Shown one piece after another: positions 26,597 to 64,000 of a DNA stretch of 64,000 bases (its first letter is position 1; each line of letters starts with the position of its first letter). A program made the translations under genes and the position numbers. The stretch is taken from IMG/VR virus record IMGVR_UViG_3300047510_003392, positions 9,234 through 73,233 of that record. One strand, 5' to 3'. The notes under the pieces were generated by a model, which was not told the DNA's origin, made no database searches, and saw only the letters and a list, made by a program, of their open reading frames with translations. This DNA is from a virus.

Positions 26597-26977
26597 TGGT
26601 GGACGTGAGGGGAGTTGAACCCCTGTGCTGTATAATATAACTACAACCATATACATGCTTATCTCTTATAATCCGACTAAGTTTGGTAGAGCACCACTTA
26701 GAAGTTGAGGACTCGTGTTTCTCGCTGTTGTTACGACCCTCGTCCTTACAACAGCAAGCAGATGGTCGAGCGTTTTATTCTATATATCTGCGTCAATAGA
26801 TAAAACGGGTAGCAACTTAGGCTACAGCAACTTCGCTCTTACGGCTTACGCTTAGGAACGATGTCTTAGCAAGATTTCTCTTAGCATTTATTTTTTCCAA
26901 CGGGTATTATACAGAGACATTAGACTCTGTGCATGCGGACTGCATCTACACTATATAGTAGAATCCAGAACACGCCC
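26597..26977 (-). ncRNA. ssrA: tmRNA
   Basis: 5' GGGCGTG / 3' CACGTCC-ACCA acceptor with G3.U70; TTCTGGATTCTAC D-region; GCATGC/GCATGT helix 2; T arm AGGGGTTCAACTCCCCT; tag frame 26885-26817 after AAATAAAT: AKRNLAKTSFLSVSRKSEVAVA*. Confidence 0.93.
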
Positions 26978-36292: not shown

Positions 36293-37528
36293 TTAGAACT
36301 GAATTTGTAGTTGCGAACGAACTCCGCGTGTTGTGGCTTTGGTTGTATTATTCTTTACTTCGCCAGATAATGCCCCAAGTTGGAACTTCATATCTTGACC
36401 TCTGATATACCAGTTTGCTCCAACATAATATTCATTGAAAAGGTTCATATTTGCTGAAGCTGGTGCTGAACGAACAACATCGCTTAGATTTACTCCACGG
36501 TTGTCTGTATCAAGACGCTGATATCTAAAAACAAACTCAATGGTTTCATTGAAATATACCGTAGGTTGAACAAACCAACCATATGGGCTTGCATCATTAT
36601 TTCCTGCACCTTTGTCAATATTGGCATACAGATATTCTGCCATCAGAGTATATCTTAGATATGATACGTCAAGATATAAAGAGTGTATGCTCAAATCATA
36701 TCCCTTTCCTATGTTGGATACTCCAAATCCACCTTGGTCTGGTAATATACCTATGCCATATCCAATAATAGCATTTCCATTTTCAGGCAGCTTGGCGGTA
36801 AATCCAACATTTCCCCATAATGCCTTTTTGTTGTTGCCTGCATTTCCAGATGAAGAAGCACCAGCAAATGTTTCATCTCTTTGTGGGTTTGTTATTGCCG
36901 CACTATATACAAGACCATATTTGTTTGTTAGTTCTTTTTTACCATCAACAAATACTCCTATACGATAGCTTGCTGCACCCAATCTTCTGCCATTGTTGCT
37001 TTCAACGAAATATCTTGTTACTCCAGAACGTTCTATTGAACGTAGATTGCCGCTGGTTGCTCTTTCTTCGTATGCGACATTTACTTTTCTAAGACCAAAG
37101 TTAAAAGTCAAATCTGGCGTTGGTTTATATTCTACAATAGCGTCGTCATATCCACCACTCGCAAAATCATACGTCATTGTTGCTCCCCAGCCAGCACCTA
37201 CGCCAGCCTTGAGTGTAAAATACATACGGCGTGTAAAAAACTGGTCAGTATATGCTGGCTTGGCTGCGGTATGAACATCTGTGCTTAGATTAGCATACTG
37301 AAGTTGCATTCTCATACCTACGCTCAATCTATCCGTGGATTTTCCGCCAGCGATGGCTTGTGATGGTATTGTATTATTTTCTCGCACCAAATCAGCACGT
37401 ATATCTTCTGCCTCCTGATTGGTTAGAATACCTTTTCGTATAAGTGCTTCAATAAGAGCACCGCTGTCTTGAGCGAGAGAAGGTATGATTAGCAACGCAA
37501 ATATCAATGGATATAGAATTTTCTTCAT
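36293..37528 (-). CDS. Phosphate-selective porin (OprO/OprP family)
   Basis: Signal peptide, LIRKGILT N-terminal helix, RR.YF, SS/SG..RSIERS, C-terminal QIQF; co-transcribed with pstS. Confidence 0.8.
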   Translation of the reverse strand: MKKILYPLIFALLIIPSLAQDSGALIEALIRKGILTNQEAEDIRADLVRENNTIPSQAIAGGKSTDRLSVGMRMQLQYANLSTDVHTAAKPAYTDQFFTRRMYFTLKAGVGAGWGATMTYDFASGGYDDAIVEYKPTPDLTFNFGLRKVNVAYEERATSGNLRSIERSGVTRYFVESNNGRRLGAASYRIGVFVDGKKELTNKYGLVYSAAITNPQRDETFAGASSSGNAGNNKKALWGNVGFTAKLPENGNAIIGYGIGILPDQGGFGVSNIGKGYDLSIHSLYLDVSYLRYTLMAEYLYANIDKGAGNNDASPYGWFVQPTVYFNETIEFVFRYQRLDTDNRGVNLSDVVRSAPASANMNLFNEYYVGANWYIRGQDMKFQLGALSGEVKNNTTKATTRGVRSQLQIQF

Positions 37529-37544
37529 ACATCCATACATAGCG

Positions 37545-42837: not shown

Positions 42838-42923
42838 TGGTGCTAGGGGCGGGATTCGAACCCGCGAAGCCTTACGGCGAGAGCTTATGAAACTCCTTGT
42901 TTTAGCCACTTACCTACCCTAAC
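42838..42923 (-). tRNA. tRNA with CAT anticodon and long (class II) variable arm
   Basis: GTTAGGG/CCCTAGC-ACCA, anticodon loop TTCATAA, V-arm GCC-GTAA-GGC, canonical T arm. Confidence 0.8.
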
Positions 42924-42927
42924 AATT

Positions 42928-43021
42928 TGGTAGTCCCAGAGGGAATCGAACCCCCGCTCGGCACTAATCAGGTGCGCACAGGTTATAAATCTGTCGGTGC
43001 TTCCAGTTACACTATGGGACC
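42928..43021 (-). tRNA. tRNA-Ile(TAT) with long variable arm
   Basis: Anticodon loop TTTATAA, V-arm GCAC-CTGATTA-GTGC, CCA. Confidence 0.82.
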
Positions 43022-45186: not shown

Positions 45187-47151
45187 TCAAGGCTTTGGAG
45201 GCAGGAATGTGCCTGTACCAGCATTGACTGGATATACTCCACTCAAGTTGGCAGCAAAACTCAATGCACTCAAATCTGTTACTCCCTTGGCATTGAATGT
45301 AAGTGCCGAGGTCTTTAGCAGATTGGACAGCGTGATACTGCCACCCGCAGTCAGGGTCAAGGGGCCGACCACAGAGTTGGTCGCCTGTGCAGATGTATTG
45401 AAGATGTCCGCACCGCTGGTGACGCTAGTAACGCCGCCGTTCAATAGACCAATGTTAGCAGAAGCAAGTTCAACAACATTGATTGCACCGGTACCAGTAG
45501 TGATAGAGATCAAGCCAAAGTTGTTGTTTGGCTGAGTCAGTGCCACTTCAGCATTGTTGGTGTTTACAGTAACATTACCACGAACATCAGCAGATGTAGC
45601 AGGTACTTGAGTAACTGTGGAGCCCTCAAGACCAACTGTAGATACAGTCAAGTTACCACCAACAACGGTAGTACCAAGAACTGTGCTGCGAGCCTGTGTG
45701 ATATTAGCATCAGCAGTAGCAGTTAGCGTAACATTACCGAGGTTGTTTAGACCAGCAGGGTCGTTAAGAGTAACATTGCCACCAGACAGATTGCTAGTAG
45801 CAGCAGTCACACGGCTAGTAGCCAGCAACTGTACGATGTCGTTCTTGCTAGCAGCAACCAGATTGCCAGTAACAGCAACACGGTTCAAGTTCAGCGTAGC
45901 GTCTTCAAGGATAGTAGCATTACCACCAACGGTCAGACTTACAGGACCAAAACTGTGCTTGGCGCGTGTAATATTAGTGTCGCCAGTTGTAACAAAGGCT
46001 GTTGGACCGTATACGAACAGTCCTTCAGCACCATCAACGATGCTAGGAGCGGTGAATGTAGTGTTACCTGTGCTAGCAATAGCAACCTTATTCAGCGAGA
46101 CGCGGGAGTTGGCAGATACATTAGTATCACCAGTTCCGCTGCTGGCAACATCAGTAAGATTTACCATGTTACCAGACAATGTCAGGTTACCAGAAGCAAG
46201 TGCGGTATAGTTAGTAGTAGCAGCAGTGCTGGCTACAACAATATTGTTACCAGACACAGTCACATTTGTGCTAGAAACTCTGGGTAGAGAAATGTCCTTA
46301 CCAGACACAGCCAGATTAGCAACATTGAGTGTACCAGTTCCCTGCGTAACTGCACCAGCAGCAATATTACCGGTGGCATTGATAGTGATGTTACCCGTGG
46401 ATGTAATAAATCCATTCGGAGCAATCACGACGCTTCCGCCAGATGTAGACACATCAGTCTTGCCGTTGAGCACCATGGGAGCAGATGCAGACGAGCCAAT
46501 CGTGGCTGTGCCACCATAGGTATTGACAACAAGGTTACCAGTTACTACAGCACCACCGATATTAGCAGCACGCGAAGCAATTGTGATGCTGTCACCAACA
46601 GACTGAATGATGGCACCATCATTTACAGTGACACCGTTAACCAGAACGCTGGTGGGTAGATTGTCTTGGCTGGGCAACTTACCATTGGTATTCCAGTATC
46701 CAAGAGATACAGTGGGATCATCCACAGTGCTAACATACAGTCCAGCAACATTGATGGTGCTGGTGCCGCCGATCAAAACGCCGCCCGGATTAAGGATAAA
46801 CACTTTGCCATTGGACTCAATAGCACCGTTGATTGTAGATGCTGCTCCGCCAGTAACAATGTTTAGAACAGATGAACCGGCAGACGGCAGTGTATATTCG
46901 ATGCGTTCACCCGTATTGAATGTGCTTGTACCGCTACCAAATGCCTGCCAAGACAACACGGCCTTGTTTGGTGCAGAAACATTCAGCGTGGTCGCTGTTC
47001 CTGTTACATTTACACCCGTTGTGGTTTGTAGATTGCTGACATCAATGCTAGGAATAGCAAAGACATAACCAGCGAATACAAACGCCATGAACAAAGAAAA
47101 AGTCTTTGTCCAAAACGAGTTATTTCGTGTATTAGTATTATTGTATTTCAT
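45187..47151 (-). CDS. Filamentous haemagglutinin/TPS-domain beta-helical secreted protein
   Basis: Long signal peptide; W..F, VLN.VTGG..S.ING...SNG.VFILNPGG TPS motif; beta-helix repeats. Confidence 0.85.
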   Translation of the reverse strand: MKYNNTNTRNNSFWTKTFSLFMAFVFAGYVFAIPSIDVSNLQTTTGVNVTGTATTLNVSAPNKAVLSWQAFGSGTSTFNTGERIEYTLPSAGSSVLNIVTGGAASTINGAIESNGKVFILNPGGVLIGGTSTINVAGLYVSTVDDPTVSLGYWNTNGKLPSQDNLPTSVLVNGVTVNDGAIIQSVGDSITIASRAANIGGAVVTGNLVVNTYGGTATIGSSASAPMVLNGKTDVSTSGGSVVIAPNGFITSTGNITINATGNIAAGAVTQGTGTLNVANLAVSGKDISLPRVSSTNVTVSGNNIVVASTAATTNYTALASGNLTLSGNMVNLTDVASSGTGDTNVSANSRVSLNKVAIASTGNTTFTAPSIVDGAEGLFVYGPTAFVTTGDTNITRAKHSFGPVSLTVGGNATILEDATLNLNRVAVTGNLVAASKNDIVQLLATSRVTAATSNLSGGNVTLNDPAGLNNLGNVTLTATADANITQARSTVLGTTVVGGNLTVSTVGLEGSTVTQVPATSADVRGNVTVNTNNAEVALTQPNNNFGLISITTGTGAINVVELASANIGLLNGGVTSVTSGADIFNTSAQATNSVVGPLTLTAGGSITLSNLLKTSALTFNAKGVTDLSALSFAANLSGVYPVNAGTGTFLPPKP

Positions 47152-53562: not shown

Positions 53563-54159
53563 CTATTTTTTCCACGCAAACCCGATACCAAGATCGTCTG
53601 CATCATTATCACAAGCATTTGGTGTTACATTCCAAATATCCAAATTTAGATTATTTATAAATTTATTTGGACCATAATGATACGCCGTGTCGTGAAACCC
53701 AACAATTCCAGCACCTGAAAGGTATTTTGTATATTCCCAGTCGTTTAGAACTTGATTGATGCTGTGGTTTCCATCTATGAATATAAAATCAAACTGCGTT
53801 ATTCCGATTGAATTCGCATATTTCATCACAACATCAATATTGGATGAGTTTTCTCTGATGGTGTATATGTTTTCATCCTTATTGTTCAAGAACGTCTTTT
53901 CCACAATATCAACGCCAAGATAAGCGGTTTCTTTCAGCTTGTTTTTTAGCAATATCTGTGTGAATGAATCTTGACCGTTTCTGTTAACTCCAATTTCAAG
54001 GATTGACTTGCAATATGGCTTGACTCTTGAAAAATAACTAAGCAACGCAGCCTTGTTTCCCTCCGTAATTTCGCGAGGGCAATTTTTTGTACAGCCGTCG
54101 ATTTCATCAAACGGCGAATGAGTGCGTATATCAATTACTAAATCAGTGTTCCATTGCAT
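53563..54159 (-). CDS. Class I SAM-dependent methyltransferase (Methyltransf_24-like)
   Basis: LEIGV, FIFIDGNHS, GFHD. Confidence 0.8.
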   Translation of the reverse strand: MQWNTDLVIDIRTHSPFDEIDGCTKNCPREITEGNKAALLSYFSRVKPYCKSILEIGVNRNGQDSFTQILLKNKLKETAYLGVDIVEKTFLNNKDENIYTIRENSSNIDVVMKYANSIGITQFDFIFIDGNHSINQVLNDWEYTKYLSGAGIVGFHDTAYHYGPNKFINNLNLDIWNVTPNACDNDADDLGIGFAWKK

Positions 54160-54203
54160 AATGTATATCTATATTTTATTATAAATATACGTATATATAA
54201 AAA

Positions 54204-54371
54204 CTATTTATCTAATCTTGTGTATCTAGAATATACAGATTCTGGTACAGAGTTCTGTTTTAGGAACTTATCTGCCATCTTAGCAATTTTTTTGTGGGAT
54301 ACTCCATCATAAAATGCATCAGATATTTCTTTGGCAGTTATTGGCTTTATGGACTTTTTCTTTTTTGGCAT
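54204..54371 (-). CDS. Small hypothetical protein (55 aa)
   Basis: Manual translation MPKKKKSIKPITAKEISDAFYDG...; fills the intergenic gap. Confidence 0.45.
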   Translation of the reverse strand: MPKKKKSIKPITAKEISDAFYDGVSHKKIAKMADKFLKQNSVPESVYSRYTRLDK

Positions 54372-54374
54372 ATA

Positions 54375-54995
54375 TCACCGCACATAAAGTGCGTCTCCCC
54401 ACCGACAATGGGTTATTTCGGTTTCTACTCTGGAAAATCCGAATGAGCTAAGATAATTGTCCATTTCATGGATTAAACAGCAATTTTTATATAAAGGCTC
54501 TTCATTTACCTCGGAATATATGTATTTTATTGAGTCCATTATTTTTCCACAACCTTTTAGTGCCAAAAGTTCAGCACCCTGTATATCAAGGTTGATAAAA
54601 TTTCTAGAACTAAATGATATATTATTTTCAGTAAATAATGTATCAAGTCTTTTGGTATTGAATTCTTTTACTTCGGTAACTTGTATTCCAGGATAGTAAT
54701 CTTTATGTGTTCCAAATTCAAGAATTGAAGACGATTGCCCATTGTTTGTTATATAAAACTTTGTTGGTTGGCCATCAACGTCGCTAACTACACAATGGAT
54801 TATTTTTTCATCGGGCTGAAGCGCAGTGTTAGCGGACAGGTCCGAAATAATTTTGTCGTTACCATCTATCCAAACTGTATTATACAGTCCTACCTTCTGA
54901 TAATCTTGTCTTTCTTCCAAATAATGAGAACCTATGTGTATTATTCCTGTTGGAGTTCCGTATTTTTTGACTATTGTCTCAATATTGATAAGCAT
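54375..54995 (-). CDS. FkbM family methyltransferase
   Basis: HIGSH..EE, SSSILE, NLDIQGAEL, EVN, WGDALY. Confidence 0.88.
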   Translation of the reverse strand: MLINIETIVKKYGTPTGIIHIGSHYLEERQDYQKVGLYNTVWIDGNDKIISDLSANTALQPDEKIIHCVVSDVDGQPTKFYITNNGQSSSILEFGTHKDYYPGIQVTEVKEFNTKRLDTLFTENNISFSSRNFINLDIQGAELLALKGCGKIMDSIKYIYSEVNEEPLYKNCCLIHEMDNYLSSFGFSRVETEITHCRWGDALYVR

Positions 54996-55004
54996 TTTAT
55001 AAAA

Positions 55005-55081
55005 TGGTCGGCGCGGAGGGATTCGAACCCCCGACGGCTTGCTCCCAAAGCAAGTGCACTACCAGGCTGTGCTACGCGCCG
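55005..55081 (-). tRNA. tRNA-Pro(TGG)
   Basis: Canonical cloverleaf, CCA. Confidence 0.95.
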
Positions 55082-55129
55082 AAATGGTGTACAAATACAC
55101 CGGTTATACCGTACACCACGATATAACTA

Positions 55130-55357
55130 TTACTTACTCTCAACAAACTTGTAGAGTTTTTCAGCAATTTGCATTGCTTCTTCTACACGATTGTCTGGTG
55201 CAATCGGTAATGTTGCCTTGCTGGTTTTTTCAGCCTCGTATCGTATCGCTTCTTGAGAGAAGTGATAACGATTATCAGCCATATCAAGTGCTTTGTTAAG
55301 CACTTCCCAACGAATTTCATAACCGCTCTTACCTTTTTGTGTATTTGTGTCTTTCAT
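55130..55357 (-). CDS. Conserved phage hypothetical protein
   Basis: KSGYEIRWEVL..A...AEKLYKFV pattern of T4-like phage small proteins. Confidence 0.6.
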   Translation of the reverse strand: MKDTNTQKGKSGYEIRWEVLNKALDMADNRYHFSQEAIRYEAEKTSKATLPIAPDNRVEEAMQIAEKLYKFVESK

Positions 55358-55413
55358 TGTGTGTGTATGAAATGATTTGCATTATTGCATCTCATTTCGC
55401 ACATCATAATGAA

Positions 55414-56034
55414 TTAAAAATCTATTTTGTCAAGTTTATAAAAATATGCATCCCATCTATTTTCTAGGCATTTATATCCGTGTGTTTCCATAACTCTTAT
55501 AATAGAATTTAAATAATCTTTGCCATCGTGTCTATGTTGAGTGTTGTGCTCAATCGACCATATTTTTATATTATATTGATTAAAATCAAAAGTAGATATT
55601 ATATCATATTCAGACCCTTCTGTGTCTAAACTAATATAGTCTATGTTTGTTGGCGATTGATGTTTTTGTAGAACGTCGTTTAAAGAAATCGTATACAAAT
55701 CAATTTTATTTTTTACTTTTCTATCTCTCTTTTCATTAAAAGACTGAGAAAATCCACTCAACTCAGAACATATAGAAAATTGCATTTTTTCGCCACTAAT
55801 CTTCCAGACAGGGCAAGTTTCTAACTTTGCAGTCCTGTTGTTCTTAATTTGAGGAATAAATTGAGGGTTTGGTTCACATAATATTCCCGTCCATCCGTAT
55901 TCTCTTTCGAGAAGACACGTATTGGAGTTATGCTCTCCATTTCCTACTCCAATTTCTACAAAATATCCATTTCTTTTTCCATTGAGAAAGTTTATTACGT
56001 ATCTATCTTGGCCTAATTGAGAGTATTCATGCAT
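55414..56034 (-). CDS. FkbM/Methyltransf_21 methyltransferase
   Basis: SQLGQD, FVEIGVGNG, GWTGILCEP, SLDTEGSE. Confidence 0.88.
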   Translation of the reverse strand: MHEYSQLGQDRYVINFLNGKRNGYFVEIGVGNGEHNSNTCLLEREYGWTGILCEPNPQFIPQIKNNRTAKLETCPVWKISGEKMQFSICSELSGFSQSFNEKRDRKVKNKIDLYTISLNDVLQKHQSPTNIDYISLDTEGSEYDIISTFDFNQYNIKIWSIEHNTQHRHDGKDYLNSIIRVMETHGYKCLENRWDAYFYKLDKIDF

Positions 56035-56068
56035 ATTAAATTTATATAAATATTTGTCGTTAGTATCG

Positions 56069-56360
56069 TATGCGACGCCACGAAGGGACTGCCCTAGTTA
56101 TGTGTGAAAATATTGGGAGGACTAATGATTACCTCCATTCCAACTCCGATATTTCAGTTATTCAGTCAGATGATACCGTCGCATCATAATGGTTCGCAAT
56201 GTCATATGTTATTCTACATACAAACCATACCTCTGGTAGCTTCGGTTGGCCAACCTAGGCTTCAGCATAGTACCTTACTTACTAATCGGAGCAGAAACTT
56301 ATCCATACTCTTCATATGAATAATGCGTTAGTCCCATTTGATAAGACTTTTTCCGCCACA
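56069..56360 (-). ncRNA. Unannotated ~290-nt structured RNA downstream of tRNA-Ala
   Basis: Nested helices GGGACUAA/UUAGUCCU, GCUCCGAU/AUCGGAGU, UUAUUCAUA/UAUGGAUAA, AUGGUUUGUA/UGCGAACCAU; long-range AUGCGACG/CGUCGCAU; G-U pairs favour the minus strand. Confidence 0.65.
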
Positions 56361-56364
56361 AAAA

Positions 56365-56440
56365 TGGTGGACCCAACAGGGTTCGAACCTGCGACCTTCT
56401 GCTTGCAAAGCAGCTTCTCTACCAACTGAGATATGAGCCC
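56365..56440 (-). tRNA. tRNA-Ala(TGC)
   Basis: Cloverleaf with G3.U70, CCA. Confidence 0.95.
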
Positions 56441-56498
56441 ATTATTTAAAAGAACAAAGATAACTATGATCTAGTTTAACCAAAAGTCAATAAGAAAA

Positions 56499-56573
56499 TG
56501 GTGGTAGAGGTGGATCCTGACACCACAACCTGTCCGTTATCAACAGACTGCTCTTCCTTTGAGCTACTCTACC
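56499..56573 (-). tRNA. tRNA-Ile(GAT), atypical T loop
   Basis: Cloverleaf, anticodon loop TTGATAA, T loop GTCAGGA, CCA. Confidence 0.85.
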
Positions 56574-56605
56574 ATAAAATTATTTATAATTCATATATAT
56601 GAAAT

Positions 56606-57574
56606 ATGAATAAAGAAATCTTGTTGAGTTTGTACGACGACGACCCTAGAAAAAAATATAAATGTAAAAATTTAAAACAAGATGGTGATTTTTTTGAAAT
56701 CGAGTATCAATCTCCGAACAATATAAACTTTGGAAGCATTACGTTGTTCGTTGAATTGATTGAAAAAAAGATTAAATTTAGATTTAATGCACTAAGAGGC
56801 GGATTCTATAGTTTGATGGGTCGTCAAATATCGGGGTTAATTCCCATCATCAATAGTCCCCACTTACAAGGATTTGATATATCAATTGACGGTTCAAACA
56901 CTTGGAATTTATTTAAACACGATGTTTCTTTTGATTTATACAAACTATTATTTAAACAAAACAATAATATAAAACTTGCATTTCCATATTGTGGACCAAC
57001 GTTGTGCGATAATAGAAAGCAGTTCTGTAAGTTAGATTTATATTCACTAAATAGTTTGCTAAATAAATACTTTTCATTGTCTGATACGCAAGAAGAATAC
57101 TATAATAAATTAGTTAACGAATACTCTATAAATTTTGATAATACGATAGGTATAATGTATCGCGGCACAGACAAATATTTGGAAATGAGACAAGTGGATC
57201 CAAAAAATTTTGTAAAACAGGCAAAAATATTATTGGAAAAAAATCCAAACTTAAATATTTTCTTACAGACAGACCAAACGCAAGTAAAAGATTTATTTAA
57301 AATTGAATTTGGAAATAAATTTTTTTTCCTACAAAATATACCGTCAACAGATGGAATAAAAAGCGTTCATAAACTTATAAACGATTTAGAAAAACGGCAT
57401 TCATATGTCCAAAGTTTAGAAGTTGCTTGTCGATTTTTATCGAAATGTAAGTATTTAATTACATCAAGTGGCAATATGGGTTGGACAATATCCGGTTATA
57501 GAGGAAATACAACTAACTTATGGCAATTTAATCACAATGGAAAATTGGTTGTTCCGAATAACACAATTCAATGA
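56606..57574 (+). CDS. Putative fucosyltransferase (NodZ/GT23-like)
   Basis: IGIMYRGTDK, IFLQTD, LSKCKYLITSSGN. Confidence 0.65.
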   Translation: MNKEILLSLYDDDPRKKYKCKNLKQDGDFFEIEYQSPNNINFGSITLFVELIEKKIKFRFNALRGGFYSLMGRQISGLIPIINSPHLQGFDISIDGSNTWNLFKHDVSFDLYKLLFKQNNNIKLAFPYCGPTLCDNRKQFCKLDLYSLNSLLNKYFSLSDTQEEYYNKLVNEYSINFDNTIGIMYRGTDKYLEMRQVDPKNFVKQAKILLEKNPNLNIFLQTDQTQVKDLFKIEFGNKFFFLQNIPSTDGIKSVHKLINDLEKRHSYVQSLEVACRFLSKCKYLITSSGNMGWTISGYRGNTTNLWQFNHNGKLVVPNNTIQ

Positions 57575-57608
57575 TGGTAGTAGTGACAGCCACATTAGCT
57601 ATTCTAGC

Positions 57609-57788
57609 TTATAAATCAAGATCAGTAAAATCATTCAGTATACCATCATATCGCTTATCTTGTTTGTATATTTCGAGTATACGTTGATGTTCATAATCGC
57701 TGGTTGGTATCCATTTAGGTTCTTCACCTTTCAGGAATATAACCGTGTATGATCTGTTTTTGTCAACTGCTCTACGTATCATCAGCAT
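57609..57788 (-). CDS. Small hypothetical protein (59 aa)
   Basis: Manual translation MLMIRRAVDKNRSYTVIFLKGEEPKWIPT...; fills the intergenic gap. Confidence 0.45.
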   Translation of the reverse strand: MLMIRRAVDKNRSYTVIFLKGEEPKWIPTSDYEHQRILEIYKQDKRYDGILNDFTDLDL

Positions 57789-57806
57789 CCGATATAATTG
57801 AACTTA

Positions 57807-58442
57807 TTACTTTTTCTTCCACGTATAATTTTCTGGATATTTAAATAGTTCAAAATCTAGACGAAACCTATTATAAATGAATTTTTTGTTTTTCTCGGTT
57901 AACAATATGTTTTTATCGATGTCAAATTTACTTTTATTGCTATGAATTTTTTTGACGAATTTTGTTCCAAGTTTATGCATTAATTTTTCAATTTCTGCAT
58001 TAAAGGCTTCAAATTTAAAGATATCATCTACAATGAGTTGTCCATCCAAATCGTATAAATACCTGTATTGCTGGCATGTCTTATGCGAAGATTGATGCCG
58101 ATATGTACTATACATCCACGATGTAAATTTTTTCAATAAATCGGGTTCCTTCAATTCTGAAATTTTTGGATTATCTCTGTTTTGCCAAAAATATTCTGAT
58201 ACTACACGGTCGTATGGATTTCTTACAAAAGCAAACTTATAATATTTTTCAAATACTTCTGGATATATCTCTCTGATTGTTGGTCCTGGTAAATGCCGCC
58301 AAGCTGCACTTATGCCGTTATATTCTATTTTTAGATCTATATCTCTAACTTTTCCTGTTAACTCAAGATAGTCTTCTATTGTAGACCCACCATTTTTTGG
58401 AATGTGTATAAAAATACATTTATGTTTGTGACTTATTGGCAT
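57807..58442 (-). CDS. Sulfotransferase family 2
   Basis: FIHIPKNGGSTI, FVRNPYDRVVSEY, DFELFKY; start reassigned to MPISH. Confidence 0.88.
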   Translation of the reverse strand: MPISHKHKCIFIHIPKNGGSTIEDYLELTGKVRDIDLKIEYNGISAAWRHLPGPTIREIYPEVFEKYYKFAFVRNPYDRVVSEYFWQNRDNPKISELKEPDLLKKFTSWMYSTYRHQSSHKTCQQYRYLYDLDGQLIVDDIFKFEAFNAEIEKLMHKLGTKFVKKIHSNKSKFDIDKNILLTEKNKKFIYNRFRLDFELFKYPENYTWKKK

Positions 58443-58496
58443 ATATTTATATATATATATGGTTATATAAACTAAATTATTAATATGTAAGGCGTT

Positions 58497-59126
58497 ATGA
58501 TGAAATACGATAAAATATTTGTGATAGGGTTCAGTCGCACGGGCACAACAAGCTTGCACACTTTATTTAAGCACTGCCAACTGCGTCCTTATCACGGAAG
58601 AAATTGGGAATTGGAAAAATATGATGCGTTTAGTGACGGACTTTGTGCTAAAGGAGAAAGATCCGACTTTGAAAAGTTATATGAAAAATATCCAAAATCG
58701 TTGTTTATATTAAATACGCGACCATTAAAAAAATGGTTAATAAGCAGAGGATTACACATGTATATGAGAAACAAAGATGGGTTTGAACCAGAAAATCCGC
58801 AAACGTATGTAAACTGGATTCTTCAGCGAGACAAACATTACTTGGAAGTATTAAGATTTTTTCAAAATGATTGTCGAAGACTTTTGGTAATTAATATAGA
58901 AAAAGAAAATTGGTGTAGCATAGTTTCTAAACGATTGATACAAAAAGAATTGCCCGATGTATTTAAGAATAAATTAAATAAAGAAGTGTTGAACCCGGCG
59001 GGAGTAAAAATTATTGAAAATTCAATAAATCAAGCGTTTTTACAACTGCAATATTCAGAAGAGCAACAGATGAGTTTGATGGTAAATAATCCATTGATTC
59101 TGTTATATAAAAACAACATTAGATAA
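58497..59126 (+). CDS. Sulfotransferase (Sulfotransfer_4-like)
   Basis: IGFSRTGTTSL, YPKSLFILNTR...W..S. Confidence 0.8.
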   Translation: MMKYDKIFVIGFSRTGTTSLHTLFKHCQLRPYHGRNWELEKYDAFSDGLCAKGERSDFEKLYEKYPKSLFILNTRPLKKWLISRGLHMYMRNKDGFEPENPQTYVNWILQRDKHYLEVLRFFQNDCRRLLVINIEKENWCSIVSKRLIQKELPDVFKNKLNKEVLNPAGVKIIENSINQAFLQLQYSEEQQMSLMVNNPLILLYKNNIR

Positions 59127-59136
59127 TTGGATTTAT

Positions 59137-59210
59137 TGGCTGTTCCTCATGGATTCGAACCATGACAAAGCGAGTCAAAGTCGCTTGTGCTACCATTACA
59201 CCAAGGAACA
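59137..59210 (-). tRNA. tRNA-Gln(TTG)
   Basis: Canonical, U1-A72, GCCA end. Confidence 0.93.
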
Positions 59211-59218
59211 AAATAAAC

Positions 59219-59294
59219 TGGTAGCCCCAGTGGGTCACGATCCCACCTCTCCTGCTTGAAAGGCAGGCGAACTCAACCATTATTCTATAGGGCC
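59219..59294 (-). tRNA. tRNA-Glu(TTC), atypical T loop
   Basis: Cloverleaf, T loop ATCGTGA, CCA. Confidence 0.85.
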
Positions 59295-59301
59295 AATAAA
59301 T

Positions 59302-59375
59302 TGGGGCTCCCAACGGAAATCAAATCCGCTTGCTCTATACAAACAGTATAGTGGTGTCTCAAAACCTGTGGGAGC
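59302..59375 (-). tRNA. Degenerate tRNA-like gene (GTT at anticodon position, C73)
   Basis: Perfect GCTCCCA/TGGGAGC acceptor + CCCA; anticodon loop CTGTTTG lacks purine 37. Confidence 0.55.
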
Positions 59376-59411
59376 ATAATTAAAACATTGTCGCCATATT
59401 GCGACTCAAAA

Positions 59412-59486
59412 TGGCGGGAGTACTAGGAATTTAACCTAGATTACAACGTTCGTAGCGTTGCGTGTTATACATTACACTATACTCCC
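59412..59486 (-). tRNA. tRNA-Arg(ACG), atypical elbow
   Basis: Cloverleaf; D loop has GT instead of GG, T loop TTAAATT. Confidence 0.85.
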
Positions 59487-59492
59487 GTAAAT

Positions 59493-59555
59493 TGGTCCCT
59501 TCACTACCATAGGGGATCGCCACGGTTGGTAGGACAGCGGATCAGGCTGGTGGCT
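59493..59555. ncRNA. Small pseudoknotted/kissing-loop element between tRNA-Tyr and tRNA-Arg
   Basis: GC-rich island with GCCAC/GTGGC, CAGC/GCTG, TCCC/GGGA stems and CTACCA/TGGTAG cross-pairing. Confidence 0.45.
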
Positions 59556-59569
59556 TCTTCATATGAAGT

Positions 59570-59656
59570 TGGTGGTGGCAGTTGGACTCGAACCAACGAA
59601 GGCCGAAAGGCCGAATGATTTACAGTCATTTGCACTTGCCGCTATGCGATGCCACC
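59570..59656 (-). tRNA. tRNA-Tyr(GTA)
   Basis: Canonical class II cloverleaf, CCA. Confidence 0.95.
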
Positions 59657-59666
59657 AGTAAAATTT

Positions 59667-59743
59667 TGGCGGGGTGCATCGGATTTGCACCGACTATCTA
59701 TAGATTGACAATCTATCGCTTGTGCTTCATAAGCTCCCACCCC
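59667..59743 (-). tRNA. tRNA-Asp(GTC), atypical elbow
   Basis: Anticodon loop TTGTCAA, D loop with AG, T loop TGCAAAT, GCCA end. Confidence 0.8.
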
Positions 59744-59751
59744 ATAAAATT

Positions 59752-59857
59752 TGGTCAGCACGAAAGGATTTTCACCAATACGATGAAGTTTTTGTCTAGA
59801 ATATTCTTCATCAGATATCTCACTGATACCCGCGTCTAATATTTTCGCCACATGCTG
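59752..59857 (-). tRNA. Degenerate Leu-like tRNA body with very long variable arm (GTG at anticodon position)
   Basis: CAGCATG/CGTGCTG-ACCA acceptor, GTGGCGAAA...AGACGC Leu-type D arm, GATGAAG/CTTCATC V-stem, weak T stem. Confidence 0.5.
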
Positions 59858-59866
59858 ATTAAAAAA

Positions 59867-59940
59867 TGGTAGGGCACGACGGTACTGCCCCGTCTTTTTT
59901 GGTTTAAAAGACCAAAACTTCACTTTAAAGTTTGTGCCCC
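59867..59940 (-). tRNA. tRNA-Lys(TTT), atypical elbow
   Basis: Anticodon loop CTTTTAA, T loop GGCAGTA, CCA. Confidence 0.85.
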
Positions 59941-59949
59941 ATAAATGAA

Positions 59950-60178
59950 TTACCAGCGTGGGGCTCTCACCCACCATACACTATTTTTCTCCGTAATGGC
60001 CCGAACATATCGTGCACTCTGTTCTTGGATTATCAAACGCTTCTTTTGCCTTGGCTCACGTTTAGCGAATGATATCCGGCTTATCGGGCGTCGTACCTAT
60101 CACTTGGTCTTGCAGAAACGACCCGCAAGATTGCTGATGTGTATGCTACGACCGCTAAGACTTTGCGTCTTACTGGTA
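59950..60178 (-). ncRNA. Unannotated ~230-nt RNA with tRNA-like ends and a large structured insert
   Basis: UACCAGU/GCUGGUA acceptor-like stem, T-arm-like GUGGG-UGAGAGC-CCCAC, CAUACAC/GUGUAUG helix enclosing further hairpins. Confidence 0.65.
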
Positions 60179-60187
60179 AAGTAAAGA

Positions 60188-60261
60188 TGGCACGGACGGA
60201 GAGAATCGCACTCTCGTCATCGGTTTTGGAGACCGAGGCACTACTAATATACCACGTCCGT
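60188..60261 (-). tRNA. tRNA-Trp(CCA), atypical elbow
   Basis: Anticodon loop CTCCAAA, D loop with AG, T loop TGCGATT, GCCA end. Confidence 0.87.
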
Positions 60262-60263
60262 AT

Positions 60264-61445
60264 TTAAATTAATTTATTCAATCCATCCCCAACGATGGTT
60301 TTATGATCGAATGCTAAAGTGGGCAGTTGTTTAATATCAAACCATCTTGCATCTTCTGCGTCATCTTGACCAGAAACTTTTTTGTTTGCGTATTCTTCTG
60401 GAAGAACTATACCGAACGCATAAGATTTAGACCAAGCATCTTTGGTGTCTCTTGGATCTCTGCCAGAACCTTCATATACACCAACCGGAACAATCATATT
60501 TTCCAAGTTTGCTATATACAATCCAGTTTCTTCTTGTAATTCTCTTATTGCCGCCTGCTTCGGAGTTTCTCTGCCAGGTTTCCATTCTTCTCCACGTTTT
60601 GCATTTGTGTCTATGAATCCACCAGGCAATGCCCACTTACCACCTTCAACGCCAGCTTTTCTTTTGATAAGTAAAATTTTATATCCATCAGCATCTTTCT
60701 TCAGAACAATGTTATCAACCGTTGGATTTGGTCCTTTGTATCTATAGTTAGAAGCTGTCTCAAACTGGTTACCACTATAATCTTTGTTGATTACTTTTTC
60801 GACAAAGGTATATGAACTTGGAACAAGAAATATAGCTTGTGATGGTTGAAGCAGATGTACTGTACCTGTTCTATCTATTACAACATCATATCCCATCTGT
60901 CTCAACAACGTGTTAAAATATACCATAGACTTTTTAGCTGGACCAGCACTACCTTCAATCTTGTTGCTTATATAATTCATTAGCCCATAAACATATTTAC
61001 CATCCGTATCTACTGGATATAGCAAATCTTTTGAGTTAGCGTCAAATTCGGTTAGAAGATCTACAAACGAAGATTGAAATTTCTTTTCGTATATACCTTT
61101 GAGCTTGTTTAAATCGGATGCCTTTGAGCTATAATTCTCAAGGTCCATTACTTTGTTGGTATTCAACTTTAACACATTTACGAATGGTCTGTCTTTTCCA
61201 AACAAATAGTTTTTGTCTTGTAGATCGTCGAATACATCATCCAATTTATAAGCGTATAATCCAACTGGCGTTGAATATGGGGTTTTTGGATTTAACCCAA
61301 CCTTTTCTATGGATGTAAATGTTATAAAATAACTCGGATCATCTTTATACTTTTTAAGTGCATCAATCGCCGAAACTTTAGGATTTTGTTCCGGATTTCT
61401 TCTTGCCTCATTCAATTGATATAATAAGTCTTTCAGTTTAATCAT
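60264..61445 (-). CDS. Nudix hydrolase (ADP-ribose pyrophosphatase-like) fused to unknown N-terminal domain, with MIKLKDLL leader
   Basis: [26 protein letters not shown] Nudix box, RDPR, DDA..ARWF, LAFDH. Confidence 0.85.
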
Positions 61446-61476
61446 ATCTTATAAATATGAACTTGTTTGAGTAAAA

Positions 61477-61551
61477 TGGTGGATCATCACGGTACTGCCC
61501 CGTGTTCTCAACGTTAAGAGCGTAGAGCATCACTTCTTATGCTTATGATCC
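61477..61551 (-). tRNA. tRNA-Lys(CTT), atypical elbow
   Basis: Anticodon loop CTCTTAA, T loop GGCAGTA, CCA. Confidence 0.85.
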
Positions 61552-61557
61552 ATAAAA

Positions 61558-61633
61558 TGGTGGGAATGGACGGTTATGCTCCGTCTCACATAGATTCACA
61601 ATCTATTATGCTTCTGATTACATCACAATCCCC
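61558..61633 (-). tRNA. tRNA-His(GTG), atypical elbow, A73
   Basis: Encoded G-1, anticodon loop TTGTGAA, T loop AGCATAA, ACCA end. Confidence 0.82.
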
Positions 61634-61638
61634 ATAAA

Positions 61639-61714
61639 TGGCTGTCCCAGCACGGCTCGAACGTGCGACCTTGAAATTAACAGTTTCTTGCTCTGCCAAC
61701 TGAGCTATGGGACA
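61639..61714 (-). tRNA. tRNA-Asn(GTT)
   Basis: Canonical cloverleaf, GCCA end. Confidence 0.93.
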
Positions 61715-61717
61715 ATA

Positions 61718-61808
61718 AATTGTAGAGAGTGTTTGGTCAAGAGTGCTTATTACGCTACGTGAACCCATTGCGATACCCCAATGGCTGTACCCTTTACTCT
61801 CTGTAAAT
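61718..61808 (-). ncRNA. Unannotated ~85-nt structured element upstream of tRNA-Asn
   Basis: Closing AGAGAGU/ACUCUCU stem, internal CCAUUG/CAAUGG hairpin. Confidence 0.4.
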
Positions 61809-61810
61809 TT

Positions 61811-61945
61811 TCATTTAAGATACTTTTTGGCTAATGGTGTCAATTCCATTCCAGCATCTTGAAGTTGTTTGACTGCTTCTTTTCTGGTTCTTATCTTGTT
61901 TTTTAATCTACCTTCTAGCGTTGGTAATTTGATTTTATTTTTCAT
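61811..61945 (-). CDS. Small basic hypothetical protein (44 aa)
   Basis: MKNKIKLPTLEG...; start reassigned because the longer ORF overlaps tRNA-Cys. Confidence 0.5.
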   Translation of the reverse strand: MKNKIKLPTLEGRLKNKIRTRKEAVKQLQDAGMELTPLAKKYLK

Positions 61946-61947
61946 AT

Positions 61948-62025
61948 TGGAGTATGTGACTGGACTTGCACCAGCATAAATGTCTTTTGCAGAGACCGCC
62001 CTATCTATTTCGGGCACACACATAC
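61948..62025 (-). tRNA. tRNA-Cys(GCA), atypical elbow
   Basis: Anticodon loop CTGCAAA, U73, T loop TGCAAGT, CCA. Confidence 0.85.
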
Positions 62026-62031
62026 ATAAAA

Positions 62032-62763
62032 TTATTCTAATATACTACCTCTATATATTTCTGCTTTTGGTTGGGATATTCCGTCGGGTAAATTTGCCAC
62101 AAGAATATTATTTTTTATATTAAATTTAGTAACTATTAAATTTTTAGCAGCAAGTTGATCCCAAGTCATACCAAAAGTGTCTATATACTTTACTGATTCG
62201 TCTTTTGAATTTAATATCGCTTTAAATTCCGGCGATATATATTTTTCACACTTTGCTTTAATAGCAAAGCCTCGTCTAATTAAGTCAGAATCTTGCCCAC
62301 TCATGGCATACAACCGTTCGTCATATCCATTCAGTCTTTTAAAGAGTTCATTTTTTATTGCAATTCTTCCATATGTTCCATCTTTCGGAACTCCGGTCCA
62401 CATCTGTAATAATTCCACTCCTTCTGCGAATTTTTTTCGTATTAATTCTAAACTTGTTCCGACGAAATTGTCACAATCTAAGTTGAATAATATATTTCCG
62501 CTTGCAAGAACGTGCGATGCGTTTTTAGCACAAGATGCGTGCCAAGGTCTTCCGGATATTTCATTCGCATATATTACTCTGTTAGACATATAAGGCAACC
62601 GGCTCATCATAAATTGATGAAGATTGTCCTTGGACCCATAATTAACAATAACCCATTCTGTATCTAAGTTATTTTTTATAACATTATATGTGTCATCTAT
62701 GGTTTGTTCAAATTGATATAATCTATTGGAACACGTTGTACAGAATGATATTTTCATACCCAA
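62032..62763 (-). CDS. Glycosyltransferase family 2/7-like
   Basis: ISFCTTC.NR, VNYGSKD, NLDCDN, LNGYDE, GQDSD. Confidence 0.8.
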   Translation of the reverse strand: MGMKISFCTTCSNRLYQFEQTIDDTYNVIKNNLDTEWVIVNYGSKDNLHQFMMSRLPYMSNRVIYANEISGRPWHASCAKNASHVLASGNILFNLDCDNFVGTSLELIRKKFAEGVELLQMWTGVPKDGTYGRIAIKNELFKRLNGYDERLYAMSGQDSDLIRRGFAIKAKCEKYISPEFKAILNSKDESVKYIDTFGMTWDQLAAKNLIVTKFNIKNNILVANLPDGISQPKAEIYRGSILE

Positions 62764-62786
62764 TATATATCAATTATACATAAGTT

Positions 62787-62862
62787 TGGTGCGGTAGACA
62801 GGGTTCGAACCTGCGACATCGAGCTTGGAAGGATCGCGCTCTACCAACTGAGCTACTACCGC
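62787..62862 (-). tRNA. tRNA-Gly(TCC)
   Basis: Canonical cloverleaf, ACCA end. Confidence 0.93.
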
Positions 62863-62877
62863 AAACATTTAAATCTA

Positions 62878-63522
62878 TTATTTCTTCCTTCTACGAACTT
62901 TTTTTCTTACACTACAATTATCTTTACACCTGAATAATGCCACACCCAGTATAATTGTCAAGGCCGCAGTGAAATATACTACTCTTTCATATGCTACCAA
63001 TTCATCCAACGCAATTTTTCTTGATTTTTCAGCAGCATCAAACTTATTTTCCAGTATCTTGTTTATGATTTCTGTGACTGGATCTATTACACGATACATT
63101 TCGCCATTATATAATTGATTATGTATTTCTTTTATATCTCCACGCACAGTCAATACTTGTATCTTTTTGATATATTCTGTTACACGCTGTGTGCGAATAA
63201 ACAACTCTTTGTCATCTATTGTTTCAACACCAGATACACTTCTCTTGTATGTATCTAGCAAAATGTGCTGCTGTTGTAACGTTTTTGTTAGTATGTTTCT
63301 AAACTGGTCTATAGTAATAAGGTCGTGAGAGACTTTGACTTGACTATCTACTAATGCCAGACCATATGAATCAAAAAGAGGACTAAGTGTATTTGTTACA
63401 ACTTCAAATTCTTTATACGAATGATCAATCTTTGAACGCAGCATTGAACTTGTATACAAACCTTTTGACACAAATATGGCCACAATAAAAAGCATCGCGA
63501 TAATAGCATGTTTTGATTTCAT
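62878..63522 (-). CDS. Two-TM protein with helical periplasmic domain
   Basis: N- and C-terminal TM segments, four-helix-like loop, basic tail; overlaps holin stop. Confidence 0.55.
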   Translation of the reverse strand: MKSKHAIIAMLFIVAIFVSKGLYTSSMLRSKIDHSYKEFEVVTNTLSPLFDSYGLALVDSQVKVSHDLITIDQFRNILTKTLQQQHILLDTYKRSVSGVETIDDKELFIRTQRVTEYIKKIQVLTVRGDIKEIHNQLYNGEMYRVIDPVTEIINKILENKFDAAEKSRKIALDELVAYERVVYFTAALTIILGVALFRCKDNCSVRKKVRRRKK

Positions 63523-63839
63523 CGTTTTTTGATAAACTTTTCTGGGTTTTTGGATACTTGCTTTGCTAATCTTGCCAATCCTTGTAATAACTCAGGTGAT
63601 ATTACACCAACAACACCATATATTATTGCTTTGGTAAGGCTGGCTATGTCAGTTTGTTCCAACATAAACCACGCTATTATAGAGCATATAGAAGCAGCAA
63701 ATATCTTTTTGAGTTGTTCTACCCACGGCATCTTACTTTCGTCTGTTAGCAATCTTGCGACCATGCCCGCCGCACCTATTAGTGCTACCAGCCATCCGCC
63801 AGTTAAAAACTCTCTTATTAGGTCTTTATCATCTGCCAT
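63519..63839 (-). CDS. Putative holin (LydA-like, 3 TM)
   Basis: 106 aa, three hydrophobic segments, basic C-terminus. Confidence 0.6.
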   Translation of the reverse strand: MADDKDLIREFLTGGWLVALIGAAGMVARLLTDESKMPWVEQLKKIFAASICSIIAWFMLEQTDIASLTKAIIYGVVGVISPELLQGLARLAKQVSKNPEKFIKKR

Positions 63840-64000
63840 ATATTTGTATATCTATAGATATAATATATATGTCAAAAAACTATATAAAAATTATTTACAA
63901 TTAGCAAATACGTAATACTACGCATTTCCCATTCCGAACCGCGTGGAGGTTTGTAAAAACTCGGAACACTAAAAGAATATATCTCAACGGGGTTGATTAC

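Follow-up and report, generated by a model that had tools for sequence, protein, structure and literature searches.

In textbook accounts of cytoplasmic tRNA, guanosine 18, pseudouridine 55, and the T-Psi-C loop are invariant. Here, we describe an array of phage tRNA genes in many of which alternative combinations, changing in concert, take the place of these elements. The array lies in a 64-kb stretch of DNA, hereafter the window, taken from the 73,233-base IMG/VR virus record IMGVR_UViG_3300047510_003392, which is estimated to represent ~32% of a complete genome.

In canonical tRNA, G18 intercalates between bases 57 and 58 and bonds to pseudouridine 55, and G19 pairs with C56. The outer face of the G19-C56 pair is a stacking surface for the ribosome (A-site finger, L5, and L1 stalk), ribonuclease P (RNase P), and T-boxes, and cellular tRNAs are described as conserving pseudouridine 55 universally (PMC4810234). 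T loops also occur outside tRNA, where 88.7% follow the consensus UGNRA and 10.9% CGNRA; there, the intercalating base is almost exclusively an adenosine, joined by two hydrogen bonds to the sugar edge of G2, and a ribosomal RNA (rRNA) T loop of sequence GGAAG is on record (bioRxiv 2022.12.26.521914).

Several described tRNAs depart from the canonical elbow. In tRNA-Pyl of Desulfitobacterium hafniense and Methanosarcina, G18G19 and T-Psi-C are missing, and the D. hafniense species has G55 together with U54.A58 and a purine at 57 (PMC1851642). tRNA-Pyl is further characterized by a 5-nt D loop, a 6-bp anticodon stem, a 3-nt variable loop, one connector base, and a CUA anticodon, whereas the variant genes of the window have D loops of 7 to 10 nt, 5-bp anticodon stems, variable loops of 4 to 5 nt, two connector bases, and no CUA anticodon. 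In type II mitochondrial tRNAs, G18, G19, and T-Psi-C are not conserved (PMC7609411) and the interaction between D and T loops is lost, whereas the strict covariation reported below argues that here it is kept in another chemical form. Natural bacterial tRNAs without G18 and U55 are also found in Staphylococcus aureus, whose non-proteogenic tRNA-Gly lacks G18-G19 and U55 and is excluded from translation via weak EF-Tu determinants (PMC13443448). These tRNAs, which lack G19 as well, serve glycine only and form an extra 31-38 pair, whereas here G19-C56 is kept in 147 of 156 tRNAs, anticodon loops are normal 7-nt loops, and ~20 specificities are represented.

With canonical tRNAs (RF00005 and the set of phage T5), the variant genes have in common the cloverleaf, the 7-nt anticodon loop with U33, the 7-nt T loop, purine 57, in most cases G19-C56, and an encoded CCA end; canonical phage tRNAs are likewise clustered in arrays between small phage genes. 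The difference is that A18 and G55 jointly replace G18 and U55, that 54/58 and 19/56 are exchanged, and that Rfam and ARAGORN scores fall or vanish. Our literature searches, which did not cover supplementary files, returned no description of an A18/G55 elbow in phage tRNAs, and neither “phage” nor “G55” occurs in the text of a 2020 review of non-canonical tRNAs.

Elbow positions are exchanged together within the window

To detect tRNA genes independently of the canonical elbow, we used a covariance model, R1, built from 127 related tRNAs and run without filters. It found 24 tRNA or tRNA-like genes in the window, each of which lies on the minus strand and encodes its own CCA end; the model’s next-best match is the tRNA-like end of the transfer-messenger RNA (tmRNA). 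Fourteen of the genes keep the U54-U55-C56 (UUC) triad, and 10 do not, every variant having lost at least one of its members.

G55 is present in six genes (both Lys, His, Asp, Trp, and Cys), and in each of them the D loop contains AG and no GG, as a preliminary description of this stretch had claimed. Among the 18 U55 genes, GG is present in 16; the other two are Arg(ACG), with GU and A56, and a tRNA-like gene, with GA and U56. The exact chance of finding A18 in 6/6 G55 genes and 0/18 U55 genes is 1 in 134,596. The substitution of U19/A56 for G19-C56 in Arg(ACG) is thereby also confirmed, and the A19/U56 combination of the tRNA-like gene is an addition to the list drawn up earlier. At positions 54 and 58, A54/U58 occurs in His and Glu and G54/G58 in both Lys genes and Ile(GAT), again as described beforehand; every loop that had been quoted was found in its place in the window.

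In other respects, the variant genes have ordinary tRNA architecture, with 7/4/5/5-bp stems, a 7-nt anticodon loop, and a 7-nt T loop. U33 and a purine at 37 are present in 9 of the 10, the exception being the tRNA-like gene with U37. What they lack is the G18 G19/U54 U55 C56 signature of the tRNA family (RF00005), the partners of which change together.

Covariation extends across related loci

An exact 28-base pattern from the His gene matched 10 loci in viral contigs and 17 in metagenome contigs; it had no match in species genomes, so no lead to a host or prophage was obtained. A protein search that started from the array’s NUDIX gene yielded one syntenic relative, L001. The related set consisted of 28 loci plus the window’s own record (29 sources) and yielded 160 unique tRNAs when ARAGORN was combined with a cloverleaf scan that required a cloverleaf, U33, and a CCA end, tolerated up to two stem mismatches, and left D- and T-loop sequences free. 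Two weak scan-only matches and two tRNAs with D loops too short for assignment of positions 18 and 19 were removed, leaving 156. Since D-loop length variation gives no single position-18 column in MAFFT or model-fitted alignments, positions 18 and 19 were assigned by a rule blind to the T loop, and gapless subsets were analyzed.

All three position pairs co-vary among these 156 tRNAs, so the covariation noted in the window holds across its relatives. At 18/55, 98 tRNAs have G/U, 55 have A/G, and 3 have other combinations; at 19/56, G-C is found in 147, U-A in 8, and another combination in 1; at 54/58, the counts are 117 for U-A, 17 for A-U, 13 for G-G, 4 each for C-A and U-U, and 1 for A-A. 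A Fisher test of 18 versus 55, in which relatedness is ignored, gave 2e-41. Of the 57 G55 tRNAs with assigned positions, 55 have an A where the D loop would otherwise carry G18. A set obtained with the covariance model only (171 unique matches with a 7-nt T loop, of 176) gave 96 tRNAs with U55 and GG, 57 with G55 and AG, and 18 others, which are mostly 19/56 variants and truncated or misaligned matches. The G55 type spans at least 20 anticodon families.

When tRNAs were clustered at 80% identity within anticodon families, 40 of the 75 clusters were U55-only, 32 were G55-only, and 3 were mixed. The mixed clusters contain pairs that differ at both 18 and 55: Phe of L024 and L006 (87% identical), Trp of the window and L028 (85%; the L028 orthologue has G18 with U55), and Tyr of L002 and L014 (89%). 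In each pair, the acceptor and T stems are common to both members. In a gapless set of 19 tRNAs of the same architecture, corrected mutual information places the 18-55 pair 12th among 1953 column pairs, just behind 11 Watson-Crick stem pairs and with zero exceptions; in 8-nt D-loop subsets, which are of mixed register, it ranks only 64th of 2346 and 374th of 2211. Related Arg(ACG) genes in L001, L011, L020, and L025 have GG with TTC, and the L001 gene at the position of Ile(GAT) has A18 with A54 G55 and U58. Both Lys genes of the window have A8 in place of the conserved U8, and U14 of Lys(TTT) may represent an 8/14 swap; of 21 unique tRNAs with A8 in the related set, 19 are of the G55 type.

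In one relative, L009, 21 of 22 model matches have G55 and all 22 lack a UUC T loop. Phage T5, an unrelated tRNA-rich control, has G55 in none of its 27 model matches; one of its Ile genes combines a UUU T loop with a GA D loop.

The dense L009 array (L009:4000-6830, plus strand) comprises more than 20 tRNAs, none with a UUC T loop. Three of them (Leu CAA, Arg GCG, and Thr TGT) have C33 instead of U33, and two UGAGA T loops have no evident partner for A56.

Stems, identity elements, and predicted folds of the variant genes

Eight G55-type families with at least three unique members each provided 136 stem pair positions. At 70 of these, both sides vary and pairing is nevertheless kept; 7 include some non-paired members. 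In the His family, both-side changes affect four of the five anticodon-stem pairs; its T arm and 3′ acceptor strand are fixed by the search pattern and are uninformative. G-1 is encoded in front of His in 7/7 unique variants. Among the identity positions read, Cys has U73, Trp has A1-U72 and G73, Asp has G73, and Lys has A73, all of which we take to conform to E. coli-type, or bacterial, identity rules. The genes also retain intact anticodon loops with U33 and an encoded CCA end. The window’s Trp sequence recurs in 13 sources and its Asp sequence in 6. An assembly artefact was rejected, as the same tRNA sequences recur in many independent contigs.

The predicted stability of the variant genes (z from -1.0 to -3.8) is no worse than that of four canonical neighbours (z from -0.6 to -1.5). 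The cloverleaf is the minimum-free-energy fold of Lys(TTT) (z -2.9) and of the tRNA-like gene (z -3.8).

Two genes have peculiarities of their own. The tRNA-like gene forms a perfect cloverleaf and is present in four sources; it is absent from the same interval of L001. The 5′ register of Cys is ambiguous: a start at 62023 entails an A1.C72 mismatch, and a start at 62025 gives a perfect 7-bp acceptor stem with a 3-nt connector. In L006 and L011, the Cys orthologue is one base shorter at this site and has the standard layout.

Standard tools miss part of the variant genes

The cloverleaf scan recovered 21 minus-strand genes in the window. ARAGORN with default settings reported 17 tRNA genes, among which are 3 of the 10 non-canonical ones, and Rfam at the gathering score reported 20, among which are 6 of the 10. 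The RF00005 gathering score (29 bits) is reached by His, Asp, Trp, Arg, Glu, and Ile; relaxed filters bring in Lys(TTT) at 35.5 bits. No Rfam match at E values up to 10 was obtained for Lys(CTT), Cys, or the tRNA-like gene; Lys(CTT) is missed by ARAGORN even with thresholds lowered to 60%, and the tRNA-like gene is absent from the ARAGORN default and Rfam outputs. With R1, all 10 variant genes score between 38.6 and 69.9 bits, and 18 to 21 of 20 to 21 stem pairs are formed. Since 7 of 10 variant genes are missed by default ARAGORN and 4 of 10 by Rfam at the gathering score, counts of phage tRNAs in metagenomes may be too low.

Table 1. Features of the window. Coordinates are those of the 64-kb window; T loops are positions 54 to 60, read on the minus strand.
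Feature	Coordinates	Strand	Elbow and other positions	D loop	T loop	Detection and remarks
tRNA-Cys(GCA)	61948-62023/62025	-	A18 G19 / U54 G55 C56; U73	GAAATAGATA	TGCAAGT	R1 47.3 bits; missed by ARAGORN default and Rfam
tRNA-His(GTG)	61558-61632	-	A18 G19 / A54 G55 C56 A57 U58; G-1 (61633); A73	AATCAGAA	AGCATAA	Rfam 43.6 bits
tRNA-Lys(CTT)	61477-61551	-	A8; A18 G19 / G54 G55 C56 A57 G58; A73	AAGAAGTG	GGCAGTA	R1 61.9 bits
tRNA-Trp(CCA)	60188-60261	-	A18 G19 / U54 G55 C56 G57 A58; A1-U72; G73	ATTAGTA	TGCGATT	ARAGORN, Rfam, R1
tRNA-Lys(TTT)	59867-59940	-	A8/U14; A18 G19 / G54 G55 C56 A57 G58; A73	TAAAGTG	GGCAGTA	Rfam 35.5 bits; R1 57 bits
tRNA-Asp(GTC)	59667-59743	-	A18 G19 / U54 G55 C56 A57 A58; G73	ATGAAGCAC	TGCAAAT	Rfam 42.4 bits
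tRNA-Arg(ACG)	59412-59486	-	G18 U19 / U54 U55 A56	AATGTATA	TTAAATT	ARAGORN, Rfam, R1
tRNA-like gene	59302-59375	-	G18 A19 / U54 U55 U56; C73; CCA; anticodon position GTT in loop CTGTTTG (U37, G38)			R1 38.6 bits
tRNA-Glu(TTC)	59219-59294	-	G18 G19 / A54 U55 C56 G57 U58	AATGGTTGA	ATCGTGA	ARAGORN, Rfam, R1
tRNA-Ile(GAT)	56499-56573	-	G18 G19 / G54 U55 C56 A57 G58; U53.U61 mismatch	AAAGGAA	GTCAGGA	Rfam 46.9 bits
tRNA-Gly(TCC)	62787-62862	-	canonical elbow			internal control; ARAGORN, Rfam
tRNA-Asn(GTT)	61639-61714	-	canonical elbow			internal control; ARAGORN, Rfam
tRNA-Tyr(GTA)	59570-59656	-	canonical elbow			internal control; ARAGORN, Rfam
tRNA-Gln(TTG)	59137-59210	-	canonical elbow			internal control; ARAGORN, Rfam
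tRNA-Ala(TGC)	56365-56440	-	canonical elbow			internal control; ARAGORN, Rfam
tRNA-Met(CAT)	42838-42923	-	A73			86 nt, long variable arm
tRNA-Ile(TAT)	42928-43021	-	A73			94 nt, long variable arm
tmRNA	26597-26977	-			TTCAACT	ARAGORN, Rfam
Phosphate-selective porin O/P domain gene	36293-37540	-
TPS (two-partner secretion) domain gene	45187-47151	-
manA-RNA-like match	56106-56378	-				34.8 bits (gathering score 55.2)
111-aa open reading frame (ORF)	59642-59977
Trp-Lys(TTT) spacer, ~245 bases	59941-60187	-
HDV-like ribozyme families, weak matches	63893-63967	-				28.3 and 26.7 bits, both under gathering scores

Two further tRNA genes of the window, Met(CAT) and Ile(TAT), have class-II-like bodies with anticodons that normally belong to short-arm tRNAs; their charging identity is therefore ambiguous.

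The variant elbow resembles a general T-loop motif

T loops of the variants open with the five bases UGCAA, UGCGA, CGCAA, UGAGA, GGCAG, and GGAAG. In the window, Trp (UGCGA) and Asp and Cys (both UGCAA) conform to the UGNRA/CGNRA consensus, and among the 171 unique model matches UGCAA occurs 20 times, UGCGA 10, CGCAA 3, UGAGA 2, and CGCGA once. The AGCAU of His and the GGCAG of Lys lie outside UGNRA; GGCAG resembles the GGAAG class of rRNA. The variant T loops listed first fit classes present in the FMN and cobalamin riboswitches and in rRNA, and as in those RNAs the partner of G55 is an adenosine. In contrast to those RNAs, the variants carry the motif in a tRNA T arm and draw the adenosine from position 18 of the D loop.

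The combination of A18 and G55 would turn the tRNA-type UUCRA loop, with its intercalating G18, into a UGNRA-type loop with an intercalating A. From these likenesses, we infer that A18 intercalates and bonds to the sugar edge of G55 and that the variants use the general T-loop solution with the L shape and the outer face preserved. The exposed G19-C56 pair is kept in the main variant; in minor variants, it is exchanged for U19-A56 or A19-U56, and U54.A58 for A54.U58, G54.G58, or C54.A58. Provided that the L shape persists, the variant tRNAs should still be accepted by RNase P, synthetases, and the ribosome. The occurrence of A18/G55 in otherwise normal tRNAs of ~20 specificities suggests that the elbow has a second workable solution and links the T loop of tRNA to the general T-loop motif of other RNAs.

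Functional status of the variant tRNAs

Stems with compensatory changes and retained identity elements make it most likely that these are working tRNAs. Overall, we consider it highly probable from the comparative data that the variants are genuine, most likely functional phage tRNA genes in which conserved elbow contacts are replaced by alternative combinations changing together. The earlier view of the changes as compensatory rather than signs of decay is well supported by the covariation at 18/55, 19/56, and 54/58, the double switches between orthologues, the both-side changes in stems, and the kept identity elements.

Several points weigh against this interpretation. The search that yielded the related loci used the 3′ half of a G55-type His tRNA, so each contains at least one such gene by construction and clade frequencies are biased. 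The limit of two stem mismatches and the CCA requirement of the scan favour well-paired stems in the compensatory count. The minimum-free-energy fold is not the cloverleaf in 4 of the 10 non-canonical genes (Cys, Asp, Glu, and Ile(GAT)); the same is true of one of four canonical controls, Gly. Further irregularities are U53.U61 in Ile(GAT), U28.U42 in Lys(CTT), the ambiguous 5′ register of Cys, and U37 in the tRNA-like gene, and the interpretation presupposes, by analogy, that tRNA would tolerate A54.U58 and G54.G58. Last, only 6 of the 24 window genes have G55, so any pressure against UUC would be incomplete here.

Could the variants be decaying pseudogenes or chance cloverleaves that are out of use? 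Their low or absent scores with standard tools and the irregularities just listed are what decay would produce. It would not, however, produce identical or near-identical Trp and Asp copies in many independent contigs, compensatory change on both sides at 70 stem positions, or intact U33 anticodon loops and CCA ends, and intermediate states, A18/U55 or G18/G55, are nearly absent (3/156). We therefore judge decay extremely unlikely. An origin in mitochondria or other organelles was rejected because a phage holin, HNH endonucleases, and a tmRNA are encoded on the contig. It is most unlikely, too, that the variants are non-translational tRNAs that are charged, kept off the ribosome, and made to feed another aminoacyl-transfer reaction. 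The tRNA-Gly of S. aureus (PMC13443448) is a precedent for such a role, and the array lies among glycosyl-, sulfo-, and methyltransferase genes; against it, the variants span at least 20 anticodon families and almost the whole L009 set, which looks like a decoding set, they mostly keep G19-C56, and no aminoacyl-transferase gene was noted among the only 18 window ORFs scanned against Pfam.

Possible causes of the elbow exchange

G55 cannot be a substrate for pseudouridine-55 formation. Given the specificities of the enzymes that make them, m5U54 and Gm18 are probably lost in the variants too. Phage T5 tRNAs evade tRNA-targeting defences through anticodon-loop changes. There, as here, a phage tRNA departs from that of the host at a site read by a nuclease; the changes described here differ in that they lie in the elbow and T loop and need a compensating second change, and their link to a nuclease is putative. 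A nuclease that reads this region was described in 2026. This enzyme, the CRISPR-associated Schlafen (Cash), cleaves tRNA chiefly within the T loop, at UUC and on the 5′ side of U55, and a single substitution of U54 or U55 is enough to prevent cutting; whether phage tRNAs are targeted is left open in that study (PMC13462974). Without UUC, the variants should be poor substrates for nucleases that read this T-loop sequence.

The suggestion made beforehand that the exchanges bypass modification or allow escape from nucleases is, as an adaptive reading of the sequences, plausible. As the cause, escape from T-loop-directed attack is tentatively placed first, slightly ahead of near-neutral drift; independence from host T-loop modification (TruB/TrmA) is unlikely, and some other cause is less likely again. 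The loss of UUC in every variant and the conversion of L009 fit escape without proving it, and the same sequences are predicted by independence from host modification or by a shifted neutral equilibrium. In the most specific form of the proposal, this group of large freshwater phages would have rebuilt G18.Psi55 into A18.G55, with swaps at 19/56 and 54/58, to erase the UUC needed by T-loop nucleases such as Cash, keeping G19-C56 for RNase P and the ribosome. We regard this scenario as possible and somewhat doubtful. If it is true, L009, with its whole set of more than 20 tRNAs converted, would be the first natural decoding set without T-Psi-C, and the exchange would be a case of counter-defence through compensated double mutation.

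About equally doubtful is near-neutral drift, in which A18/G55 and the other combinations are structurally equivalent and are reached by fast-evolving phage tRNAs through double substitution, with no benefit. Drift would account for the mixture of canonical and variant elbows in one array (10/24 without UUC), for close orthologues of Trp, Phe, and Tyr in either state, and for the match of the variant to a T-loop type that is stable elsewhere (bioRxiv 2022.12.26.521914). The fully converted L009 set (22/22) would, however, be hard to reach undirected, and the lack of G55 in phage T5 (0/27) and the described universal conservation of pseudouridine 55 in cellular tRNAs (PMC4810234) also speak against drift; these three observations indicate that the balance of states is strongly shifted in this phage group. 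The loss of U54, U55, or C56 from each variant and the conversion of L009 would, as a pattern, also suit a self/non-self mark, by which the phage disables host tRNAs via their UUC T loops and exempts its own. Such a mark is very unlikely, given that 14 of the 24 window tRNAs retain UUC and that a search of three phage fragments, estimated to be only 30 to 64% complete, revealed no Schlafen-type domain. In these fragments, PF04326 (Schlafen AlbA_2), PF01743 (CCA-adding/poly(A) polymerase), and PF01509 (TruB) gave no matches.

Whatever the cause of the A18/G55 exchange, the variants are ready substrates for studying the roles of pseudouridine 55, m5U54, and Gm18 and the enzymes that read the inner versus the outer layer of the elbow. 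They also allow one to ask whether phage tRNAs are spared by defence nucleases of the recently described kind that cut the T loop.

Source and surroundings of the array

The window’s 54000-64000 interval has no megablast match in deposited phage genomes, nor does a blastn search of these genomes with His plus Lys(CTT) or with the L009 array give a match. The closest relative is a 138-kb contig estimated to be 64% complete, which indicates a large phage. DNA sequencing runs that contain the stretch come from 16 studies and are labelled as freshwater or lake metagenomes; no RNA run was listed as containing it. A Pfam scan of the neighbourhood, which covered 18 window ORFs, showed that the genes around the tRNAs are of cargo type: sulfotransferases, glycosyltransferases, FkbM methyltransferases, a NUDIX protein, an HNH endonuclease, and a holin-like protein. 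The genes with a phosphate-selective porin O/P domain and a TPS domain are unusual phage cargo.

The phage tmRNA, whose tag peptide ends in AVA, has a canonical T loop, unlike many tRNAs of the same genome. Just downstream of tRNA-Ala, there is a manA-RNA-like match that scores below the Rfam gathering score, and HDV-like ribozyme families have weak matches near the end of the window (Table 1). The spacer between Trp and Lys(TTT) has no match in Rfam and is 86% identical to L001:11916-12149, which makes it a candidate conserved non-coding RNA; the 111-aa ORF overlaps its end.

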